From Gemmatimonadota bacterium (GTDB lineage: Bacteria > Gemmatimonadota > Gemmatimonadetes > Palauibacterales > Palauibacteraceae), in the NCBI GenBank assembly GCA_046758745.1, contig JBHIAV010000050.1:1-19233 (forward strand): a DNA stretch of 19,233 nt, written 5' to 3'. Positions 2,649-18,858 of the stretch are shown one piece after another (position 1 is the first letter of the stretch; the number at the start of each line of letters is the position of its first letter). Below the pieces are notes generated by a model, which was not told where the DNA came from, made no database searches, and saw nothing but the letters and a program-made list of their open reading frames with translations. Position numbers and translations under genes: made by a program.

Positions 2649-2778
2649 TGGGGGGTGGAAGCACCGTCTCCGATGGGGAATCGAGTGGGTCCCTCCTCTT
2701 CTCGCCAGAGCCGGGCGTGCCTCTGCCGGGGTGGACGGTCCAACTTTAATTTACCGTCGACCTCGGAAGAACGGTGAC

Positions 2779-5700
2779 ATGTCCGACTCCAAGCCCGATA
2801 TGGAGTGGAAGCAAGGTATTTGTGGCATTTGCCCGGCAGGCTGCTGGGTGGAAGTAGGCCTCCGCGGCGGCAGGTTGGAGGACATCCGCGCCGACACAGG
2901 CCACCCCCTGGGGTTGATCTGCCGGCGGGGCCAGCACGCCCCCGAGATCGTCTACTCCGAGCGCCGGCTGCGGTATCCCATGAAGCGGGTGGGCCCACGG
3001 GGCACGCTGGAGTTCGAACGTGTTTCGTGGGATGAGGCGTATGACCTGATCGTGGCGAGCCTGAACCGCATCAAGGCGGAATCCGGTCCGGAGGCCGTCT
3101 CCATCTACACGGGTCGCGGGGCCTTCGAGCTCTCCCTGTGCGACATGTTCCAACCCAGGGGCGTGGCGGTCTCCTCGGCCTCCAACATTCTGTTTCCCTT
3201 CGGCTCGCCCAACACCATGGGGGTGGGGGCGTTGTGCTACGTCTCCTTCGCCATGATCGCCCCCCACGTCACCATGGGGCGGATGCTCATTGACATGTTC
3301 ACCGACATGGAGCATGCGGAGTTGCTGGTGGTGTGGGGTGCCAATCCGGCCACCGACTCGCCGCCACTGGACATGCACCGTCTGGAAGCGGCCGCCAGAC
3401 GCGGCGCCCGGGTGTCAGTCATCGATCCGCGCCGTACCGAGACCGTGATGCGGACCGGAGCCGAGTGGATCCCCATCCGCCCCGGCACCGACGCCGCCCT
3501 GGCCCTGGCCATGCTGCAGGTGATGATCGATGAAGAACTTTACGACGAGGACTTCGCCGAGAACTGGTGCCATGGCTTCGGTGAGCTGCGCACGTATGTC
3601 CAGCACTTTCGCCCGGAGGTGGTGGAGACCATCACCGGCGTGCCGGCCAAGATCATCCGCAGCCTGGCGCGGCGCATCGCCAAGGCCACCGGGGCTTGTC
3701 CGGTCATGTATACCGGCCTGGAGTATTCCGACAGCGGTGTTCAAGCCATCCGCGCCGTGCTGACGGTATTTGCGTTGGCCGGACAACTGGATGTCCCAGG
3801 CGGCATCGGACTGGCGGCGCGGGACGCGCACTTCCCCATCAACCGCGCCTGCAATCAGGAAAACCCCGATCCGGATCGGGCCGTGGCGCGCGACAGGTTT
3901 CCCATCTATAGCCGCTACCGCGGGGAGGGCCACGCCAGCGGGCTCGTGCACTCGGTGCTGGCAGGGGAGCCATATTCCATTCGGGCACTCATTATCCACG
4001 GCGCTTCCCTGCTGACCTCCTGGCCGCAGACCGCGCTGTGGCGGGCGACCCTCTCGAAGCTGGATTTCATCGCGTGTATCGACCGTCAGCTGACCGCGGA
4101 CGCCGCGTACGCCGATGTCGTGCTGCCCGCCACGACCATGTTCGAGATCCAGTCCTACATGGTCTACGGGCCCATTTTCCGCATCCGCGAAAAACTCATT
4201 GAGCCGGTGGGTGAGGCGCGCAACGACTACCTGATCATGGCCGAGCTGGCCGAGCGACTGGGGTATGGTCACCTGTATCCTCGCAGCGAAGAGGCCCTGC
4301 TGCGTTTCGTCCTGGACGGCTCGGGCTACACCGTGGAACGGGTGCGGGAGGCAGGCGGCTGGGTGAAGCTCCCCACTCCGTTGATGGAGTACGTGAAGTG
4401 GGAGAAGGGCCTTCTGCGCTCGGACGGGAAACCAGGCTTCGATACACCCACGGGCAAGTTCGAGATCTGGTCCACCATCCTGGAAGAGTACGGCTATGAG
4501 CCACTGCCCAAGTACACGGAGCCGAAGGAAGGCCCCCTCGGCAGCCCCGAGCTCGCTCGGCAGTATCCGCTGGTCTTCAATTCCGGCGCCCGCCCCAACA
4601 CCGATTTCCGCTCGCAACACCACGGCGTCGACGGCCTGCTGCGGGACAACCCGGAACCCACCATCGAGATGAACGCCGCCGATGCCGCCGAGCGCGGAGT
4701 CGAGACCGGCGATCGGGTGGAGGTGCGCTCACCGCGGGGCGCGGTGCCGTTCCGCGCCCGGGTCACCGAAGACATCGTCGAGGGCGCTGTGGAGATCAAC
4801 ATGGGCGGCGGCACGCCCGTGGGCCCCGAGGCCTGGCAGGAATGGAACGTCAACGAACTCACCAGTCTTGCAGCCTACGACGAGATCTCCGGCTTTCCGG
4901 TGTTCAAGGCCTTGCTGTGCGACGTGGTCAAGGTAGGCCAAGCGACCGAGCAGACCCGCGCCAGCGCGGCCGCGGCCGCAGGCGTATGCGCCCCGCCCAC
5001 ATCTCCCGTCCACGGTGACTCCCGCCGACCCGGTAGACGGATCTATCTGGACAACAATGCCACCAGCCGCCTTGCCGATACGGTGCGCGAGGCCATGCTG
5101 CCATTCCTGGAAACCGGCTACGGTAATCCCTCCAGCATCTACACCCAGGGGCGTCGCGCGCACGAGGCCATCGAGAACGCCCGCCGCCGAGTGGGCCGGC
5201 TCATCAATGCCCGTCCACGCCGCATCCTGTTCACCGGCGGCGGCTCGGAATCCAACAACCTGGCGCTGAAGGGCATCGCCTTCGCGCGCGGTGCCCAGGG
5301 CGATCACATCATCACCACCGCGATCGAACACCCCGCCATCCTCCAGACCTGCCGGTTCCTGGAGCGTATGGGCTTCCGTCTCACCTACCTGCCGGTGGAT
5401 AGCGACGGATTGGTAGACCCGGAGGCGCTGCACGGTGCCATCGATGACCACACCCTCGTGGTCTCCATCATGATGGCCAACAACGAGGTGGGCACCATCC
5501 AGCCGATAAAAGAGCTTCGCGACATCACACATGAGCGTGGCGTGTTGTTCCACACCGACGCAGTACAGGCAGTGGGCAAGATCCCGGTGGACGTGGAGGA
5601 GCTGGGGGCGGATCTGCTAAGCCTCTCGGGGCATAAGTTCCACGGTCCAAAGGGGGTGGGCGCGCTCTACGTTCGCAAGGGCGTGGAACTCGAGCCGTTG

Positions 5701-6192
5701 ATTCACGGCGGCAAGCAGGAACAAGGCCTGCGTGCGGGCACTGAGAACGTCGCGGCCATCGTGGGGCTCGGCAGGGCGGCCGAACTGGCCATTCAGGCTC
5801 TGCCGCTATCGCAGGAGACAGGGAGGCTGCGCGACCGTCTGGAGGCCGGCATTCGCGAGCTTATCCCGGACGCCCGGCTGAACGGCCACCGGATGCGGCG
5901 TCTATCCAACACGCTGAACCTGACGCTGCCCCGACTGCGCGGCGAGAGCCTGGTCGTAGCGCTGGATCAGCATGGCATCGCAGCGTCCTCGGGCTCGGCG
6001 TGCAAGTCGGGGTCACCCGACCCCACCCACGTGCTGATCGCCATGGGTCGCAGCACGGCGGACGCCCACTCCGCCGTGCGCTTCTCCCTCAGCCACGATA
6101 CCACGGCGGAGGAGATTGATCAGGTGCTCCATGCCTTGGAGGAGGTGTTGGAAGAGATGGAGACCACGGTACGCTTTCTACCGTGCAAGTAG
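2779..6192 (+). CDS. Fusion of a molybdopterin (Mo/W-bisPGD, DMSO reductase superfamily) oxidoreductase and a group I NifS/IscS-type cysteine desulfurase
   Basis: N-terminal domain has CGICPAGC...C (C15/18/22/48, 4Fe-4S), VWGANP, VIDPRRT, PIRPGTD, ADVVLPA and a MopB C-terminal domain (EMNAADAAERGVETGDRVEVRSPRG). After a linker come IYLDNNAT, HTDAVQAVGK, SGHKFHGPKG (PLP Lys) and SSGSAC. Start is ATG 2779 (ATG 2800 possible). Confidence 0.93.
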   Translation: MSDSKPDMEWKQGICGICPAGCWVEVGLRGGRLEDIRADTGHPLGLICRRGQHAPEIVYSERRLRYPMKRVGPRGTLEFERVSWDEAYDLIVASLNRIKAESGPEAVSIYTGRGAFELSLCDMFQPRGVAVSSASNILFPFGSPNTMGVGALCYVSFAMIAPHVTMGRMLIDMFTDMEHAELLVVWGANPATDSPPLDMHRLEAAARRGARVSVIDPRRTETVMRTGAEWIPIRPGTDAALALAMLQVMIDEELYDEDFAENWCHGFGELRTYVQHFRPEVVETITGVPAKIIRSLARRIAKATGACPVMYTGLEYSDSGVQAIRAVLTVFALAGQLDVPGGIGLAARDAHFPINRACNQENPDPDRAVARDRFPIYSRYRGEGHASGLVHSVLAGEPYSIRALIIHGASLLTSWPQTALWRATLSKLDFIACIDRQLTADAAYADVVLPATTMFEIQSYMVYGPIFRIREKLIEPVGEARNDYLIMAELAERLGYGHLYPRSEEALLRFVLDGSGYTVERVREAGGWVKLPTPLMEYVKWEKGLLRSDGKPGFDTPTGKFEIWSTILEEYGYEPLPKYTEPKEGPLGSPELARQYPLVFNSGARPNTDFRSQHHGVDGLLRDNPEPTIEMNAADAAERGVETGDRVEVRSPRGAVPFRARVTEDIVEGAVEINMGGGTPVGPEAWQEWNVNELTSLAAYDEISGFPVFKALLCDVVKVGQATEQTRASAAAAAGVCAPPTSPVHGDSRRPGRRIYLDNNATSRLADTVREAMLPFLETGYGNPSSIYTQGRRAHEAIENARRRVGRLINARPRRILFTGGGSESNNLALKGIAFARGAQGDHIITTAIEHPAILQTCRFLERMGFRLTYLPVDSDGLVDPEALHGAIDDHTLVVSIMMANNEVGTIQPIKELRDITHERGVLFHTDAVQAVGKIPVDVEELGADLLSLSGHKFHGPKGVGALYVRKGVELEPLIHGGKQEQGLRAGTENVAAIVGLGRAAELAIQALPLSQETGRLRDRLEAGIRELIPDARLNGHRMRRLSNTLNLTLPRLRGESLVVALDQHGIAASSGSACKSGSPDPTHVLIAMGRSTADAHSAVRFSLSHDTTAEEIDQVLHALEEVLEEMETTVRFLPCK

Positions 6193-6394
6193 CCGGACGA
6201 AGCGGCGGGCGGCGCCTGGAACCGTGATGGTGGCCGCCCTGGAGACGCCGCAAAGGTGGCGGCAGCCGGTCACGGGGCGGTCAGAGGCCCGTCAGCGAGA
6301 CGTGACGCGCGAACTTCGAGGCTATCCTATTCTCGGTGCCGAGGGGACCGTTGGCGGGGAATGCGCAATCCCTTAGATGTCGGGATCCCGAAAG

Positions 6395-6467
6395 AGCGGG
6401 CGACCGGTCTCGAACCGGCGACCTTCAGCTTGGGAAGCTGACGCTCTGCCTGCTGAGCTACGCCCGC
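6395..6467 (-). tRNA. tRNA-Gly (anticodon CCC)
   Basis: Acceptor GCGGGCG/CGCCCGC, discriminator U, anticodon arm TCAGC-TTCCCAA-GCTGA, T arm GCCGG-TTCGAGA-CCGGT. CCA is not encoded. Confidence 0.97.
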
Positions 6468-6592: not shown

Positions 6593-6666
6593 TGGGGCGG
6601 GAGGGACTCGAACCCCCGACCTCTGCGATGTGAGCGCAGCGCTCTGGCCGGCTGAGCTACCGCCCC
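6593..6666 (-). tRNA. tRNA-Val (anticodon CAC)
   Basis: Acceptor GGGGCGG/CCGCCCC, discriminator A, anticodon arm CTGCG-CTCACAT-CGCAG, T arm GGGGG-TTCGAGT-CCCTC. CCA is not encoded. Confidence 0.95.
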
Positions 6667-12185: not shown

Positions 12186-13328
12186 TCAGATCTTGGCCGC
12201 CACTTTTTCCAGGAGCTTGGCGTTCGAGGCGGTTCGGCGCATGAGGCCGAGCACCTCCGACATCGCCTCCACGGGCGACATGCTGCTCAGCTCGCGCCGC
12301 ATGGCATGCGAGCAGGCGAGCGCCGCGTCCGAGAGAATCAGCTCCTCGCGCCGCGTGGAGCTCGCGTTGAGATCGATGGCCGGCCAGACGCGCCGCTCCG
12401 CGAGCTCACGGCTGAGCACGAGCTCGCTGTTCCCGGTCCCCTTGAACTCCTCGAAGATCACCTGGTCCATGCGCGACCCGGTGTCCACGAGGGCCGTCGA
12501 GATGATGGTGAGCGATCCGCCCCCCTGTCCCGGGTCGATTCGCCGCGCGCTGCCGAGGAACCGTTTGGGCTTCTCGAGGGAGTTCGCGTCCAGGCCGCCG
12601 GTGAGCGTACGGCCGCTTCCCTCCTCCACGGTGTTGTAAGCGCGGGCGAGGCGAGTGATCGAGTCCAGGATGAGCACCACGTCCTCCCCCATCTCGACGC
12701 GGCGGCGGGCGCGCTCGAGAGTGATCTCGGCCACCGCAACATGGCGGTCGGCCGGGAAGTCGAAGCTCGAGGCGATCACCTCCCCGAAGCCGCATATCTC
12801 CATCTCGGTCACCTCCTCCGGTCGCTCGTCCACCAGGAGGATCAGCAGGATCGCGTCCGGATAGTTCTTCACGATCCCCTCGGCGATCGCCTGCAGCACC
12901 ATCGTCTTCCCGACCTTGGCCGGCGAGACGATCATGGCGCGCTGTCCTTTCCCGAGCGGGCAGAAGAGGTCGATCAGCCGGTTGGTGGGATCACGCTCGC
13001 CGAGGCGGGTGAGACCGCACTCGAGCACGAGCTGCTCGTTCGGATGCACGGCCGAGAGGCGATGAAAGTGCGGGCGGCGCTCTAGGGACTCGACCGGAAC
13101 CCCGTTCACGGCATGGAGCCGGGTGAGCGGAGGGCTCTTCCCGTTGCCGGGCGCCTTCCCCACAGTGCCCGCGATCTCGTCTCCCGTGCGGAGATCGAAC
13201 TTCTGGATCAGGCGCTGGCCGACGTAGATGTCGCCGTCCCCGGGGATGTAGCCGGATTCGCGCCGCCGGATGAACCCCGAGCCGCTCCCCAGCACTTCGA
13301 GGAGGCCGAGAGATGCTTCGTTCGTCAC
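12186..13328 (-). CDS. rho: Transcription termination factor Rho, short form lacking the N-terminal helical bundle (380 aa)
   Basis: OB fold (GLLEVL..GSGFIR, DIYV, LRTGD), Walker A SPAKVGKT, LLVDERPEEVT, LDSITRLARAYN, GRTLTGG, TGSRMDQVIFEEFKGTGNSEL and STRREE. Confidence 0.93.
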   Translation of the reverse strand: MTNEASLGLLEVLGSGSGFIRRRESGYIPGDGDIYVGQRLIQKFDLRTGDEIAGTVGKAPGNGKSPPLTRLHAVNGVPVESLERRPHFHRLSAVHPNEQLVLECGLTRLGERDPTNRLIDLFCPLGKGQRAMIVSPAKVGKTMVLQAIAEGIVKNYPDAILLILLVDERPEEVTEMEICGFGEVIASSFDFPADRHVAVAEITLERARRRVEMGEDVVLILDSITRLARAYNTVEEGSGRTLTGGLDANSLEKPKRFLGSARRIDPGQGGGSLTIISTALVDTGSRMDQVIFEEFKGTGNSELVLSRELAERRVWPAIDLNASSTRREELILSDAALACSHAMRRELSSMSPVEAMSEVLGLMRRTASNAKLLEKVAAKI

Positions 13329-13462
13329 GGTTCCATCACATTCAGCGGGTGGGTCGGTTGGTTGTCTGGATGCCGAGCCAGGTCCGAGTCGTCACGGACG
13401 CCGCAGGAGCAGAACCCTATGGACCGGTCCGATGTCTCGGAACGGTGGGGAGAGATCCGGCC

Positions 13463-13515
13463 GTGCCTCGAACCCTTCCCCCTCGGCGATTTGTCCGCCG
13501 CGGGGTGCCTCGAAC
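13463..13515. repeat. 11-bp direct repeat GTGCCTCGAAC x2 flanking a GC hairpin, upstream of rho
   Basis: Exact copies at 13463-13473 and 13505-13515 (42-bp period). Hairpin 13479-13488/13496-13505 lies between them. Confidence 0.7.
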
Positions 13516-13784
13516 TGATCTTCTAACTCCCGGAGCTCTCCAAAGGTTCCGTTTGCGTAGAGGGCCGCCGCGTCCGCCGCGAGTCCGCCCATCCTGCAAC
13601 CCATCTGCAATCCGTGCGCCCGAGGGCACCGTGGAAGTGCCGCCGGCCCGGGAATCGAGCCTCTACCTCGACGGAGTCCCCCGGCCGGTCGAGATCGACG
13701 GCAGAGGACACTACACAGACAGCGTCGGACGGCGAGCGAGACAGCGTGTGGCAGGAAAAAAGTTGCACATTGAGCGGTCGCGGT

Positions 13785-13850
13785 CAAGTGCGGCCGCCTG
13801 CCTGCTCTCAGCAGGTGTGGCTGCCTGCCTGCTCTCGGCAAGTGCGTGCT
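13785..13850. repeat. 27-bp tandem repeat, about 2.4 copies
   Basis: CAAGTGCGGCCGCCTGCCTGCTCTCAG (13785-13811), CAGGTGTGGCTGCCTGCCTGCTCTCGG (13812-13838; 23/27 identical), and partial CAAGTGCG from 13839. Confidence 0.85.
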
Positions 13851-13907
13851 TCGCATGTCCACCGCGCGGGAGCCGCGAAGATGGCGCTCGCGCGAAGCGG
13901 CTCGGTC

Positions 13908-14747
13908 TCATCCGACGCGAGCCCGCACGGGCAGCGCTCTGCGCGCGAGCCACACCGCCACCAGCAGGAGGCCGAAGACGCACACCACGAGGGGACCGGT
14001 CGGCAGATCGAAGGTGAACGAGAGACCGAGCCCCGCCGCGGAGGCTACCGCCGAGACGGCCCAGCTGATCCCGATCAGACCTGCAGTCGAGCGAGTGAAG
14101 AGGAAGGCGACCACGGCGGGAACGACGAGGAAGGTGAACACGAGCAGCACGCCCGCAAGCGGCACGGCCAGCGTGATGACCACGCCGAACGACAAATAGA
14201 AGAGGAAATCCCACCACCGGATCTTCCAGCCGCCCTCCTCCGCCCTCTCTTCATGCAGCGAGATCGTGAGGAACCTATCCCGGAGCTTCCACTGGAAGAC
14301 GCCCACAACCGCGTACACCGCGGCGACCTTCGCGATCGTCCCCCAGTTCACCCACAGCAGGCTTCCCACCAGCACCTCGTGGATCGCCTCACCCCCGCCC
14401 GGCGTGCGGTCGGCCACCAGGATCGCCGCGGCCGTGGCCACGATGTACACGATCCCGATGATCGCCTCCTGCGGCACGCGCTGGCTCCCCCGGCGCTCAC
14501 GGGTGAAAGCGAAGACCAGCGCTCCGAGGGTCGTGAAGCCGAGGGCGAAGGCGTAGGCGAGGGGCGAGTCCCCGCCGACGTGGAAGAGGAGAGCGATCGT
14601 GCTCCCGAGCGCCGCCATCTGTGCCAGTGCCAGATCCACGAAGATCACGCCCCGCGCGATGACGTGTACACCCAGGTAGGCGAGCATCGCCACCAGCACC
14701 ATGGAGGCGACGAAGGGGGCGACCATCAGCTGCAACAGATCGGACAT
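13908..14747 (-). CDS. Metal ABC transporter permease (ZnuB/ABC-3-like)
   Basis: Highly hydrophobic, 279 aa. Motifs YLGVHVIARGVIFVDLALAQMAALG, EAIIGIVY, GVLLVFTFLVVPA and DLPTGP. GGAG RBS. Confidence 0.9.
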   Translation of the reverse strand: MSDLLQLMVAPFVASMVLVAMLAYLGVHVIARGVIFVDLALAQMAALGSTIALLFHVGGDSPLAYAFALGFTTLGALVFAFTRERRGSQRVPQEAIIGIVYIVATAAAILVADRTPGGGEAIHEVLVGSLLWVNWGTIAKVAAVYAVVGVFQWKLRDRFLTISLHEERAEEGGWKIRWWDFLFYLSFGVVITLAVPLAGVLLVFTFLVVPAVVAFLFTRSTAGLIGISWAVSAVASAAGLGLSFTFDLPTGPLVVCVFGLLLVAVWLARRALPVRARVG

Positions 14748-14860
14748 GTGTTCGACTCCGCTGACTCAGAGGTGGCCCGCCGTGCGGCGTTCGCGCTGTG
14801 CCACGCGGGCTGACGCGCTCGCCTCCCCTTCCCCGGTCGGGCGGAGCGTCGCGCCGGCCA

Positions 14861-15988
14861 TCAGCCGGTGGCGTAGGCGGCGGCGAGCTCCCGTATCCAC
14901 AGGCCCACCAGATCCGTGTAGGTCTTTGTTCCCGGCGCCCCATCCGTGTTGGAGGGAACGATCACCGGCGTAGCTCCCGTGCGCGCGGCCACGGACTGTA
15001 CCTGATTGTGGTCGTAGTAGTTGGTGGAGAAGAGTACCCGGATCCCCTCATCCTGCATGAGCCGGATGACCCGCGCTACATGTTGGGGCGTCGGCGGGAT
15101 GCCCGGTTTCGGCTCTACGTACTCGACGCACGACACGTCGAAAGCCCGGTTCAGGTAGTCCCATTCCTTGTGGTAGCACACCATCCGCTCACCGCGGAAC
15201 GCCTCCGCCTGCTTCAGCCACCCACCCAGCCGTTGGGACAGCGGCCGCCCTTGATAACTCTGGGTGGAGACGAACTCGAGCAGACGGTACTCTCTCGCGA
15301 GGTTGAATACCGCATCCACCCCGAGCAGCTCCACCAGCTCGTCCCCCGCGAAGGCCCGCATGATCCGCTCCTTCCAGGCGGCGAAGCGTCGCTCGAAGTA
15401 AGAGGCGTTTTCAGGCGAGACGCGCTTCAGGCCGGCCAGGATGTTCTGCCCTATCTGAACCGCGTTGGCGGGGGCGGTCCAGATGTGGGGGTTTCCGAAC
15501 AGGTGAATGTCGCCCTGGGACCGGCTGACGGACTCCGGGATATCGAGAAGCTTGATGCCTCTGTAGGCGGTCACATGACCCGGATTCCCCGGCCGGATCT
15601 TCTGGTTGTTCGCCTTGTCGAGGAGCGTCGGGACCCACAGCTCCAGGTCCAGGCCCGTCACCACGAACAGGTCGGCGCGCCGGAGCTTGAGCAGCAGGCT
15701 CGGGCGCGGAGTCACGAAATGCGGGTTCTCCGCGCCGTCGGCGATGGCAGAGACCTCGGCGCGGTCGCCAGCGATCTCACGCGCGATCGCGGCGTACGTG
15801 GTGAGGGAAGTCACGACGCGTACGGCGGCTTGCCCGTCCCCTTCGGAGGGGGCCGCGGCGGCCGACACGCTGCTCGCGGTCGCCGAGGCGACCGAAGTCT
15901 CCGACTCTGCAGGGGGGACGGCCCCCGCGAAGGCCGGCGCGACGGCTCCGGAGAAGGCGGTGAGGAGGACGGCGATATCGCGAAACAT
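14861..15988 (-). CDS. Metal ABC transporter substrate-binding protein (ZnuA/TroA family)
   Basis: Signal peptide from ATG 15988. Motifs VVTSLT, ENPHFV, GLDLELW, GDIHLFGNPHIW, YHKEWDY and EPKPGIPPTPQH. Confidence 0.92.
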   Translation of the reverse strand: MFRDIAVLLTAFSGAVAPAFAGAVPPAESETSVASATASSVSAAAAPSEGDGQAAVRVVTSLTTYAAIAREIAGDRAEVSAIADGAENPHFVTPRPSLLLKLRRADLFVVTGLDLELWVPTLLDKANNQKIRPGNPGHVTAYRGIKLLDIPESVSRSQGDIHLFGNPHIWTAPANAVQIGQNILAGLKRVSPENASYFERRFAAWKERIMRAFAGDELVELLGVDAVFNLAREYRLLEFVSTQSYQGRPLSQRLGGWLKQAEAFRGERMVCYHKEWDYLNRAFDVSCVEYVEPKPGIPPTPQHVARVIRLMQDEGIRVLFSTNYYDHNQVQSVAARTGATPVIVPSNTDGAPGTKTYTDLVGLWIRELAAAYATG

Positions 15989-16005
15989 ATCAGATAGCTC
16001 TCTGT

Positions 16006-17283
16006 CTAATAGCTCTCGTGTTTGTGAGGACCGACGGCCCAAACGGCCTGGATCAGCCAGCGGTCCGACGTATCCCTCTCCCCGACGAGGTCCGGGGTCG
16101 AGCTGTGCTGCCACTCGGCGCGGAGCATCACCCACTCGCTCTGCCACCAGGTTATGCGGGGTACGATCGCCCACTCGTGCCGCCCGGAGGGTCCCTCCAA
16201 CAGCTCCACGTAATCGAAGCGTGCACCGGCGAACCAGCTCCGGCCGAGCTGATATTCCGCGCCGAGGTACGCCCCATACCGGGTGCCACCGATTCCGCCG
16301 CGCTCCTGGTGCACGGCGTATGCCTCGCCCCGCAGGGTGAACGAGCGGTACAGCCCTCGCCCCGGAGGCCGCCAGGTGTAACGCAGGTCTGCGCCGAACA
16401 GCCTCGCCTTCAGCTCCTCATCGGGGTTCTCCCCGTACGCCACGGTGCCGCCGACCTGGAAGAAGGAGGAGCGGCCGAGCTGCCAGAAGTTGTTGAGGTG
16501 ACCGAGCACGGAGAGCCGGTCCCCCTTCTGGAACAGCTCCTCGCTCTCGCCGACGGTGAGCTCCCCCCACAGCTCGTGAGTGGCGCCGCCAGGGCCGTCG
16601 AACGGGGCTAGCCAGTACACGCGCAGGCCGTTCCCGACAAGGCCCTCCTCCCCGAAATAGGTACGATACACGAGTGGGTACTCGCTCTCGGGAAGGGCGT
16701 GCAGGTGCACCCGGTTCAGATCCCCGACCTGCTGGCGGAGGCGCCCGAGGTCGACCCGGAAGCCGCCGGGCAGGCCGCTCCAGTAGGCGTAACCCTCCTC
16801 CAGGTCCAGCTCGCCTTCCTCGAACGAGAGGAAGATCTTCGTGCTGGCGTACGGGTCGAGCGCCGCCTGGAAAGCGAACTCGAACTCCCGGAGGTCGACG
16901 TTGTCGGCTTGCGGGCCCGGTCGAACGGCCGCCAGCCGAACGTCGCCCGTGATGCTGATCTCGGGGTTGAGCCGGTTCAGGCTGCCCACCGGCGGCCCGC
17001 CCTGCGTCCCCTCCGCCGCCGTCGTGTCAGCCTGCTCTCCAGCCGCGGCCGCCGCAGCGCGCAGCGCCGCCAGCTCATCCACGACCTCGAGCGTGTCGGC
17101 CCGTGCGGTACGCAGCGAGTCGACGAGCCATGCCAGCGAGTCGAGCCGCGCGTTGAGAGCGTGGACTTCGGCGATCAGCGAGTCGGTGGTGGACGTGGGG
17201 CGCTCCTGGGCCCGGACGGTGGCCGGTCCGGCCAGACCGGCCGCCACCCCTGCGACTGCACACCAAGTTGTCGACGTTCGCAA
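16006..17283 (-). CDS. Outer-membrane beta-barrel (porin-like) protein linked to metal uptake
   Basis: TTG start with AGGAGG 8 nt upstream. Signal peptide, coiled-coil segment, then NPEISITGD, REFEFAFQAALDPY, LNRVHLH and alternating beta-strands. His-containing C-terminus GPHKHESY. Confidence 0.8.
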   Translation of the reverse strand: MRTSTTWCAVAGVAAGLAGPATVRAQERPTSTTDSLIAEVHALNARLDSLAWLVDSLRTARADTLEVVDELAALRAAAAAAGEQADTTAAEGTQGGPPVGSLNRLNPEISITGDVRLAAVRPGPQADNVDLREFEFAFQAALDPYASTKIFLSFEEGELDLEEGYAYWSGLPGGFRVDLGRLRQQVGDLNRVHLHALPESEYPLVYRTYFGEEGLVGNGLRVYWLAPFDGPGGATHELWGELTVGESEELFQKGDRLSVLGHLNNFWQLGRSSFFQVGGTVAYGENPDEELKARLFGADLRYTWRPPGRGLYRSFTLRGEAYAVHQERGGIGGTRYGAYLGAEYQLGRSWFAGARFDYVELLEGPSGRHEWAIVPRITWWQSEWVMLRAEWQHSSTPDLVGERDTSDRWLIQAVWAVGPHKHESY

Positions 17284-17291
17284 TGCGGAAA

Positions 17292-17387
17292 CCTCCTGCT
17301 CTGAGGCTACTCTGTGGCGTCGAGCGACGGCCGCGCTGCGCGGACGCCGGCGGGACGCGAATCAGATCGTTTGCCTCAGGCCGGAGG
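17292..17387 (-). promoter_or_regulatory. SD-sequestering stem between the RAPP codons of the uORF and the RBS of the beta-barrel gene
   Basis: mRNA CCUCCGGCCUGAGGC (17387-17373) pairs with GCCUCAGAGCAGGAGG (17307-17292): 14 Watson-Crick pairs, one mismatch, one bulge. An inner GGCGUC/GACGCC helix is also present. Confidence 0.75.
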
Positions 17388-17678
17388 GGCGCGGGAGAGC
17401 TTGGATTCGAGGTGTCGGAGGATCGGAGGCCGCTTGGCGATCTCGGCCTCGGGCGTGCGCTCGATCGTCGGAGGTGGCGAGGGCGCGAGGGCGGGGGGAG
17501 CCTGGCGGTCCGGCAGGTGACCAACGTGGCAGACGGCGCAGGCTTGCGGATACTCCGCGCCGCCGTGGTGGCCGTGCCCGCTCGATATGCCGACCCTCAC
17601 GAAGAGCGCCGCCGCCAGGATAAGCGGTACGGCGCGACCGATGCGCCACTCCCGAATCGTCCGAATCCGCATTCTCAC
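17376..17678 (-). CDS. DUF2946-like (CruR/CutF-type) upstream regulatory ORF with His-rich/CxxC segment and C-terminal RAPP arrest motif
   Basis: Basic N-terminus plus hydrophobic stretch, then HGHH, CAVCH, a Pro-rich linker and SRAPPA*. Lies directly upstream of the metal uptake genes. Start is GTG 17678 or ATG 17672. Confidence 0.85.
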   Translation of the reverse strand: MRMRIRTIREWRIGRAVPLILAAALFVRVGISSGHGHHGGAEYPQACAVCHVGHLPDRQAPPALAPSPPPTIERTPEAEIAKRPPILRHLESKLSRAPPA

Positions 17679-17853
17679 GCCACTTCCCTACCACTCACCG
17701 ATCCGGGAGGTTCCATTGGAGAGGCTCCTCGGGCGTCCCGCCCGCGCCCGGTGCCCCATGATGGAGCTGGACGTACGGCGCGCCCGGCAGTCGGTCCGAA
17801 AGGGGCGAGCCTCGACCGTTGGAGCCTCGAGCGCGTCGCCAGTGGCCGAAGAG

Positions 17854-18858
17854 TCACTCCGACACCCTCAGCACGCCGGTCCCGGCGATCTCATCCCGCT
17901 TGAGCCTGAGCAGCGCCTCGTTCGCCTTCTCCAGGGAGAAGGTCGTGACCTCCGGCCGGATGGGGATCTCCGCCGCCTCCTCGAGCAGCCGCCTCCCATC
18001 CTCGCGGGTGTTCGCCTCCACGCTCCGCAGGTTCTTCTCATGGAAGAGATACTCTTCGTAACTCATCTCGGGGATGGGGCTCATGTGAATCCCGGCCAGG
18101 GCGACCGTCCCGCCCTTGCCGAGAGCTCGCAGGGCCCGCGGCACGATCTCGCCCGCCGGCGCGAAGACGATCGCGCTGTCCACCGGCACCGGCGGTTCCT
18201 CTCCGGCTCCGCCGACCCAGGCTGCGCCCATGCGCCGGGCGAGCTCTTGGTGGCCCTCTCCGCGGGTCACCACGAACACCTCGCAGCCGCGGTGCAGGGC
18301 GAGCTGGATCACCACGTGGGCCGAGGAGCCGAAGCCGTACAGTGCCAGGCGACCGCGGTCCGGGACTTCACTCCTGCGCAGAGCGCGGTAGCCGATGATT
18401 CCCGCGCACAGGAGCGGGGCCGCTTCGAGGTCCGAGAAGCCGCCGGGGATCCGGTAGGCGAAATCCTCCGCCACGACGGCCAGCTCGGCGTACCCGCCGT
18501 CCTCGTGATATCCCGTGTAGCCGGAGGCCTCACACAGGTTCTCCCTTCCGCTCCGGCAAAAGCCGCAGGTTCCGCATGTCCGGCGGAGCCATGCGATCCC
18601 GACGCGCTCCCCCGGACGCAACGTCCGGCTCCCCTCGCCACACTTCTCCACGACGCCCACCGCCTGATGCCCCGGCACGATCGGCAGGCGGCGCGTTGGA
18701 AGGTCGCCCTCGATGACGTGGAGGTCCGTTCGACAGATGGCGCACGCCCGGACGCGCACCAGAATCTCGCCCGGGCCGGGAGTGGGATCCGGGAGGGTGA
18801 CCGGCTCGAGGGGACGCGTCTCGATCGGCGCGATCCGTCCCAGGAGCATCGCTCTCAC
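17854..18858 (-). CDS. Zinc-binding alcohol dehydrogenase family protein (MDR, 334 aa)
   Basis: GGAG plus GTG 18858. Motifs CRTDLH, PGHQ, GERVG, CGTCGFCRSGRENLC, AAPLLCAG and GFGSSA. Confidence 0.93.
   Translation of the reverse strand: MRAMLLGRIAPIETRPLEPVTLPDPTPGPGEILVRVRACAICRTDLHVIEGDLPTRRLPIVPGHQAVGVVEKCGEGSRTLRPGERVGIAWLRRTCGTCGFCRSGRENLCEASGYTGYHEDGGYAELAVVAEDFAYRIPGGFSDLEAAPLLCAGIIGYRALRRSEVPDRGRLALYGFGSSAHVVIQLALHRGCEVFVVTRGEGHQELARRMGAAWVGGAGEEPPVPVDSAIVFAPAGEIVPRALRALGKGGTVALAGIHMSPIPEMSYEEYLFHEKNLRSVEANTREDGRRLLEEAAEIPIRPEVTTFSLEKANEALLRLKRDEIAGTGVLRVSE

Follow-up and report, generated by a model that had tools for sequence, protein, structure and literature searches.

What does a small open reading frame (ORF) ending in R-A-P-P do at the head of a metal-uptake-type operon in a gemmatimonad? 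The question is raised by a stretch of 19,233 nucleotides, hereafter the window, taken from contig JBHIAV010000050.1 of a Gemmatimonadota metagenome-assembled genome (MAG; GCA_046758745.1), the assembly of which is 87% complete. An earlier reading of this DNA, made from the letters and without database searches (the sequence-only reading), had described an upstream ORF (uORF, here the leader) whose predicted ribosome stall site is at the same time an anti-Shine-Dalgarno (anti-SD) element for the next gene, and had proposed that a stalled ribosome switches the operon on whilst metal binding releases the stall and switches it off. As far as computation goes, this interpretation is supported: judging from motif layout, family conservation and pairing across related loci, we consider it probable, with moderate confidence, that the leader is an arrest peptide of the CruR/DUF2946 class that gates translation initiation of a porin-ZnuA-ZnuB operon by unmasking its Shine-Dalgarno (SD) sequence. 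The elements on which this reading is built are as follows.

17376–17678, minus strand: leader ORF (uORF) of 100 residues, a CruR/DUF2946-like arrest-peptide candidate, with GTG start at 17678, alternative ATG at 17672 and TGA stop at 17376–17378
17598–17633, minus strand: hydrophobic segment, residues 16–27 (Kyte-Doolittle profile), a putative export signal or membrane anchor
17565–17576, minus strand: HGHH, residues 35–38, the HxH part of which is conserved across the leader family
17529–17540, minus strand: CAVC, residues 47–50 (CAVCH to residue 51), a CxxC candidate metal-binding motif
17382–17393, minus strand: RAPP, residues 96–99, the predicted stall site, followed by one Ala and then the stop
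17373–17387, minus strand: 5' arm of the helix (anti-SD), comprising the Pro-Pro-Ala codons, the stop and three further nucleotides (minimum free energy, MFE, fold)
17292–17307, minus strand: 3' arm of the helix, containing the SD AGGAGG (17292–17297), 8 nt ahead of the TTG at 17283
17311–17366, minus strand: inner GC-rich hairpin, enclosed by the anti-SD:SD helix (MFE fold)
17366–17545, minus strand: C-rich, G-poor mRNA tract (sliding-window composition), a candidate Rho utilisation (rut) site

The uORF of about 100 residues is present on the minus strand where the sequence-only reading had placed it, with its export-type N-terminus, HGHH, CAVCH, Pro-rich linker and terminal RAPPA. Six Arg are found among residues 1–15, followed by a hydrophobic stretch of 12 residues with Kyte-Doolittle values of up to 2.3, and this layout of Arg-rich start and hydrophobic segment is common to all aligned leader homologues; the linker between CAVC and the C-terminal S-R-A-P-P-A-stop is rich in Pro and Ala. 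The spacer from CxxC to RAPP measures exactly 45 residues, as it does in seven of the eight close homologues (47 in the eighth). In the account of the CruR family given by Roy 2022 (PMC9426467), the hallmarks are CxxC, RAPP at the C-terminus and, between the two, 45 residues, a spacing that is kept within one or two. A search with the DUF2946 hidden Markov model (Pfam PF11162), which had been suggested as a check, gave a weak match (E 0.023; 15.9 bits, under the cut-off of 23.7) of leader residues 33–99 to positions 50–117 of the 117 in the profile, reaching its C-terminal end, but CxxC, RAPP and the 45-residue spacing are all present.

Since a word-index search with the leader returned the leader itself as sole match, the recovery of homologues needed profile and genome searches. 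Matches to the leader profile among 1.84 billion representative proteins number 360 at E ≤ 1e-3, 12 at 1e-10 and 2 at 1e-30; in genome searches, the leader turned up in 12 of 61 relatives and in 55 of 401 genomes drawn from across the phylum. Conservation was analysed in an alignment of eight close leaders (A1) and in one of 87 family representatives (A2), 86 of which could be scored for motifs. H35, H37, C47, C50 and S-R-A-P-P are invariant in A1, in which otherwise only R15, L25 and P66 are, and this alignment holds no conserved stretch of 7–10 columns, so the porin protein was used instead as the query for related loci. Across all 87 sequences of A2 one His, both Cys and both Pro are invariant, with the other His, the Arg and the Ala kept in at least 90%, whilst the remainder of the peptide drifts to a mean column identity of 24%; conserved ligand residues and RAPP amid such drift are what one would expect of a regulatory leader. 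Of the 86 scored representatives, 83 have RAPP, with a tail of one or two residues in 57; HxH occurs in 84, in 66 of them 8–9 residues ahead of CxxC; and the spacer from CxxC to RAPP is 44–45 residues long in 77. DUF2946 is matched at E ≤ 0.01 by 38 of the 87 representatives (best 3.4e-5).

Set beside the known classes, the window thus combines several layouts. Like the RAPP arrest peptides, it has the R-A-P-P core at the C-terminus of a small, candidate exported protein upstream of the next gene, and, as in CutF, a stem-loop formed by the 3' end of the leader covers the SD of the gene that follows. The CxxxC and C-terminal PPP of the CutF type are replaced by CxxC and RAPP-A-stop. In place of the copper-homeostasis genes that accompany CruR, the downstream genes encode a porin-like outer-membrane protein, ZnuA and an ABC-3 permease. 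The long intergenic region of CruR loci has its counterpart in 92 nt of structured sequence (MFE fold) between leader and porin gene; as to the leader being the first gene of its operon, an alcohol dehydrogenase (ADH) gene on the same strand has its end 175 nt upstream, and the promoter scan made no call. From its sequence, the leader is best described as a divergent branch of the CruR/DUF2946 class that lies below the threshold for formal membership. A group of leaders in related loci without CxxC (L058, L059, L087, L088, L090–L098 and L100) carry other Cys/His-rich motifs, for example C-x-x-x-H-D-H-x-x-C, and retain the R[AGS]PP end and the SD pairing; these may be sub-types with a different ligand.

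The stem of 14 bp that the sequence-only reading had drawn between the last codons and stop of the leader and the AGGAGG ribosome-binding site of the TTG-started gene is seen in the MFE fold of 17270–17400 (minus strand), in which a 5+2+7 bp helix joins 17373–17387 to 17292–17307, and the same helix is kept in a fold of 221 nt. The arm-to-arm duplex has an energy of -30.4 kcal/mol, compared with -17.5 +/- 3.8 kcal/mol for shuffled SD windows (1 of 200 as good), and by duplex energy the cognate SD is the best of 32 SD windows for this anti-SD. From the window alone the significance of the helix is modest, and it is the related loci that carry the real support.

For these loci, duplexes were computed between 39 nt around the leader stop (-27 to +12) and 28 nt before the porin start (-25 to +3). 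Cognate partners gave a mean of -18.85 kcal/mol in 32 distinct loci, compared with -14.82 kcal/mol for swapped ones, and -18.44 versus -15.14 kcal/mol in 46 distinct loci, where the permutation null was -15.21 +/- 0.45; in both sets, 0 of 20000 permutations reached the observed mean. The MFE folds hold at least 5 pairs between leader end and SD in 38 of the 46 loci and at least 10 in 33, and the mean number of such pairs is 11.8 in real loci versus 7.7 in chimeras carrying a foreign SD window. Perfect helices of 7–11 bp are built from unrelated sequences in different clades, often including the stop codon and the bases that follow it. In a MAFFT alignment of 12 loci from one subclade, RNAalifold recovered the inner hairpin only (7 pairs, 2 with compensatory changes), having missed the outer helix because this is out of register between rows; for the outer helix, the comparison of cognate with swapped duplexes and the chimera control were used in place of column-wise pair counting. 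Pairing also extends to sister operons, in which the leader precedes genes for a TonB receptor or ABC-2 proteins: in 12 of 13 such loci the duplex is at least as strong as -13.2 kcal/mol, the helices between tail and SD are mostly 9–10 bp long (L050 is without any), and tails ending in ISL and VSL differ by a single A-U to G-C switch within the helix. Thus, the conservation and covariation that had been asked of the stem are found, with cognate pairs outdoing swapped ones and clades using different sequences, and the excess of cognate pairing is real but moderate.

Where the anti-SD lies with respect to the predicted stall codon completes the picture. In RAPP stalls, the first Pro codon is described as occupying the P site, with the last Pro in the A site (PMC10951233, PMC12992588). 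By analogy, a ribosome on the window leader is predicted to stall with its P site at Pro98 (CCU, 17385–17387) and its A site at Pro99. The mRNA channel of the ribosome has its boundary at +15/16 nt from the first base of the P-site codon; a stalled ribosome would hold in this channel the stretch that runs from the first Pro codon to about +15 nt, and the 5' arm could then not pair with the SD. When positions are numbered from base one of the first Pro codon, anti-SD pairing across the 46 loci has its maximum at +7 to +16 nt, and the 5' arm in the window spans 0 to +14. This first Pro codon is CCU, a rare codon, in 17 of the 46 loci and CCA in 11, against a background of 7.1% and 8.2% in the porin genes of these loci; CCU followed by CC gives the anti-SD core CCUCC.

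From these observations we infer the arrest, its release by metal, the polarity of the switch and the identity of the metal. A ribosome stalled at RAPP would occupy the anti-SD and leave the SD free, such that a second ribosome could initiate at the TTG (ON), and in this state the porin, and probably the coupled ZnuA too, would be translated. Available metal would bind the nascent HxH...CxxC, which should lie near the tunnel exit given the 45 residues that separate it from RAPP at the peptidyl-transferase centre, and the resulting folding or pull would release the arrest. The released ribosome would terminate one codon later and leave, whereupon the 14-bp helix would re-form and mask the SD (OFF). 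A second, non-exclusive output appears likely, namely that the C-rich half of the leader acts as a rut site and ribosome release permits Rho termination. The individual steps have precedents: CruR is reported to arrest in vitro at the RAPP position, and RAPP arrest to resist elongation factor P (EF-P) (PMC12992588); in CutF-cutO, a stalled ribosome is described as melting the stem-loop that shields the SD (10.1101/2022.11.11.516240; 10.1101/2025.02.05.636593); and the report that zinc-dependent folding of a Cys2His2 finger abolishes SecM arrest (Nilsson 2015, PMC4571824) indicates that a metal-driven release of arrest is physically possible. A metal-off polarity would match that of CruR and suits an importer.

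More familiar modes of control were considered for the same region. Translational coupling or reinitiation was ruled out because the intergenic regions of these loci span 44–164 nt, and the intergenic hairpin was rejected as an intrinsic terminator for want of a T run behind it. An Rfam scan of 13300–18000 gave 0 matches at E ≤ 1, by which a riboswitch or leader RNA of a known kind was likewise ruled out. A scan for promoters and terminators gave 0 sigma-70-like and 0 terminator-like sites, and no operator could be proposed. The sequence-only reading had seen no AT-rich, Zur/Fur-like palindrome upstream, in agreement with a scan of 17660–17880 upstream of the leader that found no inverted repeat of at least 8 nt within 30 nt, although this is a weak negative.

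The genes that would be under this control form an operon on the same strand, followed by rho.

16006–17283, minus strand: porin-like outer-membrane protein of 425 residues with TTG start, signal-peptide-like start, N-terminal coiled coil and beta-barrel
14861–16018, minus strand: ZnuA-family (cluster A-I) binding protein of 385 residues (Pfam ZnuA, 1.6e-44), its start overlapping the end of the porin gene
13908–14747, minus strand: ABC-3 (ZnuB-type) permease of 279 residues (Pfam ABC-3, 8.1e-32)
12186–13328, minus strand: rho, 380 residues, the next gene after the permease

The TTG-started gene had been read as a beta-barrel protein, and this is borne out by the model of its 425-residue product: it has no match in Pfam or NCBIfam, but an AlphaFold2 model built with 28 homologues (predicted local distance difference test, pLDDT, 76) shows an N-terminal coiled coil and a barrel of 16–18 strands, with porins as nearest folds in Foldseek (E 1e-12 to 1e-8; OprP and OprO best, TMq 0.56). 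Two motifs of the porin family, N-R-x-H-x-H (residues 190–195) and the C-terminal G-P-H-K-H-E (418–423), are invariant in 28 of 28 aligned homologues, and these His-rich motifs may form a metal-selective site. The Pfam assignments of ZnuA and ABC-3 agree with the porin-ZnuA-ZnuB-type operon that had been named as the target, and its synteny is repeated elsewhere: in six of the eight close loci the order is leader-porin-ZnuA-ABC-3, whilst in the other two the leader lies ahead of an ABC ATPase and ABC-2 permeases. No gene for the ATPase (ZnuC) was found between or after the operon genes, be it in the window or at related loci. The same genome encodes another, canonical His3-type ZnuA-ZnuC-ZnuB set on contig C4 (G000; about 103100–105600; L106, L109), and its ZnuC-like ATPase could serve the ATPase-less operon of the window.

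Porin homologues define 53 related loci, all from Gemmatimonadota except three labelled Akkermansiaceae, Marinacidobacterales and Kiritimatiellia. A CxxC...RxPP leader lies within 500 nt upstream in 33 of the 53, with spacers of 41–45. Under a relaxed rule, which accepts any ORF of at least 60 residues ending in R[AGSP]PP plus 0–8 residues, a leader is present in 45 of the 47 porin loci that have at least 400 nt upstream, and one of the exceptions has a masked run of N. The leader family also precedes TonB-dependent receptors (CarboxypepD_reg and Plug) and an ABC ATPase with three ABC2_membrane_2/DUF3526 permeases. At L055, the porin is 64% identical to that of the window and lies on a 7.6-kb contig of a MAG labelled Akkermansiaceae; this contig is probably mis-binned Gemmatimonadota.

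Which metal would be sensed is best approached through the operon and its neighbours. We give zinc about an even chance, and regard copper, and equally any other metal, as rather unlikely. In the ZnuA-family protein His116, His194 and His299, which we take to be the metal ligands under this numbering, are conserved in 36–37 of 37 homologues, and the third aligns to what is presumably the Glu ligand position of the manganese protein MntC. The leader itself carries HxH and CxxC, a Cys2His2-like set. Upstream neighbours were scanned by taking the largest ORF only, in all but L088 and L098 of the 38 loci that had sufficient flank (36 loci), and comprise alkaline phosphatase (7), an AP_endonuc_2 TIM barrel (5), ZIP transporter (3), zinc-type ADH (1), sensor kinase/GAF (4), MerR (1), other families (5) and ORFs with no Pfam match (10); there was no copper gene among these 36, and in the window itself the gene upstream of the leader is the zinc-type ADH. 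Twelve of these 36 loci have the upstream gene on the same strand, often close by: alkaline phosphatase (7) or AP_endonuc_2 (5). The alkaline phosphatase genes are those directly upstream at L056, L057, L060, L067, L093, L095 and L096, and the ZIP-family transporters, which are divergent, those at L091, L094 and L097. Caulobacter znuK (a TonB receptor) and znuGHI (ABC-2) are described as Zur-regulated (PMC4176598); the sister operons resemble them in gene content, and DUF3526 matches Caulobacter only among 14 control genomes. Taken together, the ZIP and alkaline phosphatase neighbours, the His3-type ZnuA and the znuGHI-like sister operons appear to point to zinc over copper. Against zinc stand the canonical His3-type ZnuA-ZnuC-ZnuB set that the genome already has, the want of an ATPase in the window operon, the copper sensing of CruR, whose layout is the same, and the limit that the specificity of a cluster A-I binding protein cannot be read from its sequence; furthermore, the neighbour counts include the 10 of 36 ORFs without Pfam match, some of them perhaps spurious.

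Several observations weigh against the gating of translation by SD unmasking that we favour. Besides the sub-threshold DUF2946 score and the lone word-index match of the leader, the folds of the window are marginal when compared with shuffled sequence (131 nt: z-score -1.75, 10 of 200 shuffles as good; 221 nt: z-score -0.62). The porin start codons in the related loci were picked by eye; 8 of the 46 loci have fewer than 5 pairs in the MFE fold; and the cognate duplexes of some, for example L053, L061 and L099, do not outdo shuffles. When the SD window is exchanged for a foreign one, the chimeras (368 folds) still form at least 5 pairs in 61% and at least 10 in 44% of cases, and much of the pairing is thus generic, because C-rich Pro codons complement purine-rich SDs. 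The permutation count, moreover, overstates independence and is not a true probability, since the loci are kin. Of the sequencing runs listed for the locus, none is of RNA; four DNA runs, one of them perhaps from the source sample, come from a single study of hydrothermal-vent metagenomes. As for precedent, CruR as characterised has Rho as its output, senses copper and can dispense with its signal peptide, and in CutF the polarity is opposite, with metal inducing the stall.

The first of these precedents leads to the strongest rival, namely an output of the CruR type only, in which a stalled ribosome shields a rut site and blocks Rho and the helix is secondary, be it a pause or a structural element. 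The tract of 180 nt that covers the second half of the leader (17366–17545; C 42–55%, G 20–28%, C/G 1.5–2.5) resembles the C>G bubble reported as the mapped cruR rut site (PMC9426467), the leader has the CxxC-45-RAPP layout of CruR, rho itself lies 580 nt downstream of the permease gene, and, like that of cruR, the intergenic region (92 nt) is both long and structured. This C-richness, however, stems in part from a Pro/Ala-rich linker in a high-GC genome, and Rho alone gives no account of why leader tail and stop complement the cognate SD and covary with it across clades, nor of why the pairing peaks inside the footprint of a RAPP-stalled ribosome; we therefore see a Rho-only output as somewhat unlikely, whilst noting that it is non-exclusive with SD unmasking. 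That SD unmasking operates with copper as ligand, as in CruR and CutF, and serves an operon for copper acquisition seems doubtful to us. Whilst CxxC at 45 residues is given as the copper-sensing configuration of CruR (PMC9426467), the leader family heads TonB-dependent receptor genes in Gemmatimonadota, the canonical CruR context, and a canonical ZnuACB set is already in the genome, copper fits poorly with the three conserved His of the binding protein, with the ZIP, alkaline phosphatase and zinc-type ADH neighbours, no copper gene having been seen upstream in the 36 loci scanned, and with an invariant HxH beside CxxC, which is Cys2His2-like and is not named as a hallmark where those of CruR are set out (PMC9426467).

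A switch of CutF-like polarity, in which metal bound in the periplasm induces or prolongs the stall and metal excess turns the operon on, could be suspected from the export-type N-terminus and from the SD-shielding helix over the leader end, the architecture described for CutF-cutO (10.1101/2022.11.11.516240). The importer-type targets (ZnuA-family protein, ABC-3 permease and porin), a spacing that equals that of CruR, and the description of RAPP as an intrinsic, EF-P-resistant arrest (PMC12992588), unlike the PPP of CutF, make this quite improbable. Least probable of all is that the product of the small ORF is a stable metal-binding protein, secreted or anchored in the membrane, for example a chaperone, with no regulatory role and an incidental helix. 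Its signal-like N-terminus and conserved Cys and His would allow for this, and CutF was, according to PMC9426467, initially taken for a chaperone; such a protein, however, would offer no rationale for the fixed spacer and the covarying anti-SD, conservation is confined to ligand residues and S-R-A-P-P at 24% mean column identity, and RAPP/RGPP are reported to be among the most avoided bacterial tetrapeptides and to cluster at the C-termini of small leaders (PMC12992588).

An arrest peptide acting through SD unmasking thus has relatives on several sides. The nearest is CruR (Bp2923) of Bordetella pertussis, the prototype of DUF2946, described in Roy 2022 (PMC9426467) as a small leader with an export-type N-terminus, CxxC, 45 residues and RAPP near the C-terminus; shared as well are the C-rich second half, the long structured intergenic region and, as predicted for the window, the place at the head of an uptake-type operon. 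The window leader differs from CruR in adding the invariant HxH 8–9 residues ahead of CxxC, in having RAPP 1 residue from the C-terminus rather than 3, in a 3' end that is the anti-SD of the next gene (a predicted translational output, as opposed to Rho-dependent termination), and in its target, which is porin, ZnuA and ZnuB in Gemmatimonadota instead of a copper-linked TonB receptor. With CutF-cutO of Rhodobacter capsulatus, as presented in Ozturk 2021, 2023 and 2025, it has in common a DUF2946-like leader with a Sec signal, a candidate one in the window, and a stem-loop, beginning in the last codons of the leader, that shields the next SD and that in the window, as in CutF, would be melted by the stalled ribosome. 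CutF, in contrast, has CxxxC and an EF-P-dependent PPP where the window has RAPP in a CruR-like layout, and its stall is induced by copper to switch on a detoxifying oxidase; with an importer as target in the window, the opposite polarity is expected.

What SecM-secA, ApdA and ApdP (as treated in Morici 2024, PMC10951233, and Fujiwara 2024, PMC10987492) would share with the window leader is arrest at a C-terminal R-A-(P/G)-P whose last Pro occupies the A site, the exposure of a downstream SD upon arrest, and release by force on the nascent chain. These peptides monitor Sec or YidC, whereas the window leader would use the force of metal binding, and the homology is limited to the motif. RAPP/RGPP uORFs near metal-homeostasis genes are reported to be likewise small, exported, tipped with a C-terminal RAPP and spread over many phyla (EMBO J 2025, PMC12992588); the classes named in the main text of that study are TonB receptors, YcnI, PCuAC, PepSY, DsbA/thioredoxin and sec, and a ZnuA/ABC-3 or unannotated-porin class is not named there. 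The ADR1a zinc finger-SecM sensor (PMC4571824), in which zinc folding of a nascent Cys2His2 releases an R-A-G-P arrest that is stalled without zinc, has the logic that is proposed for the window leader; it is, however, artificial, its optimal tether is given as 24–26 residues inside the tunnel versus 45 at about the tunnel exit here, and its ligand order is CxxC...HxxxH in place of the HxH...CxxC of the window leader.

Elsewhere in the window, the gap of 580 nt between permease gene and rho (13329–13907) contains no Pfam, tRNA or Rfam match. An ORF of 1153 residues (2731–6192, plus strand) encodes a molybdopterin oxidoreductase (Fe4S4, Molybdopterin, Molydop_binding) fused to a C-terminal class-V aminotransferase/cysteine-desulfurase-like domain, and genes for tRNA-Gly(CCC) (6394–6467) and tRNA-Val(CAC) (6593–6666) lie on the minus strand.

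The novelty claimed in the sequence-only reading was overrated, as a C-terminal RAPP already defines CruR and an SD-shielding stem-loop has been shown for CutF-cutO and SecM-secA. Already known from the published accounts are metal-homeostasis leaders with C-terminal RAPP across phyla (PMC12992588), the CruR hallmarks and the CutF stem-loop, and Ozturk 2023 proposes nickel or cobalt for the His-only clusters in CutF-like leaders. In the literature searched, no paper joins DUF2946 with a gemmatimonad or an arrest peptide with ZnuA, and none of those pairing DUF2946 with zinc describes a leader-porin-ZnuA arrangement, although the supplements of Roy 2022, Ozturk 2023 and EMBO J 2025 may list such neighbours. 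What appears to be new is the probable coupling of a CruR-type sensor to SD unmasking, in which the predicted stall codon is part of the anti-SD and natural covariation supports the helix, together with the HxH addition, the ATPase-less porin-ZnuA-ZnuB target, the Gemmatimonadota clade and the lead towards zinc.

To our knowledge, no metal-sensing arrest peptides other than CruR and CutF have been characterised, and copper is the metal sensed by both. Their outputs (Rho in CruR, SD unmasking in CutF) and polarities differ, and the locus in the window would unite the sensor layout of CruR with SD unmasking; here, the predicted stall codon and the anti-SD share their nucleotides, and the helix is defined by dozens of covarying variants found in nature. 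Going one step further, we suggest, tentatively and as a possibility that we hold short of probable, that a nascent Cys2His2-like site folds on zinc at the tunnel exit and pulls the chain from RAPP arrest, as nature's equivalent of the engineered ADR1a-SecM sensor, thereby gating porin-ZnuA-ZnuB directly through SD masking as part of a Zur-independent zinc regulon that would include the TonB and znuGHI-like operons and would make this the first natural zinc-responsive arrest peptide. The discussion in Roy 2022 (PMC9426467) notes that no riboswitch has been described for copper or zinc, a gap that a zinc ligand, if true, would fill whilst providing a natural system for metal-driven co-translational folding forces. 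A porin family that had no annotation, with its conserved His motifs, and a ZnuA-ZnuB pair without an ATPase are here annotated together as one putatively regulated module in a poorly studied phylum, and this porin-ZnuA-ZnuB module, if it indeed serves zinc uptake, would be previously undescribed and widespread in Gemmatimonadota.

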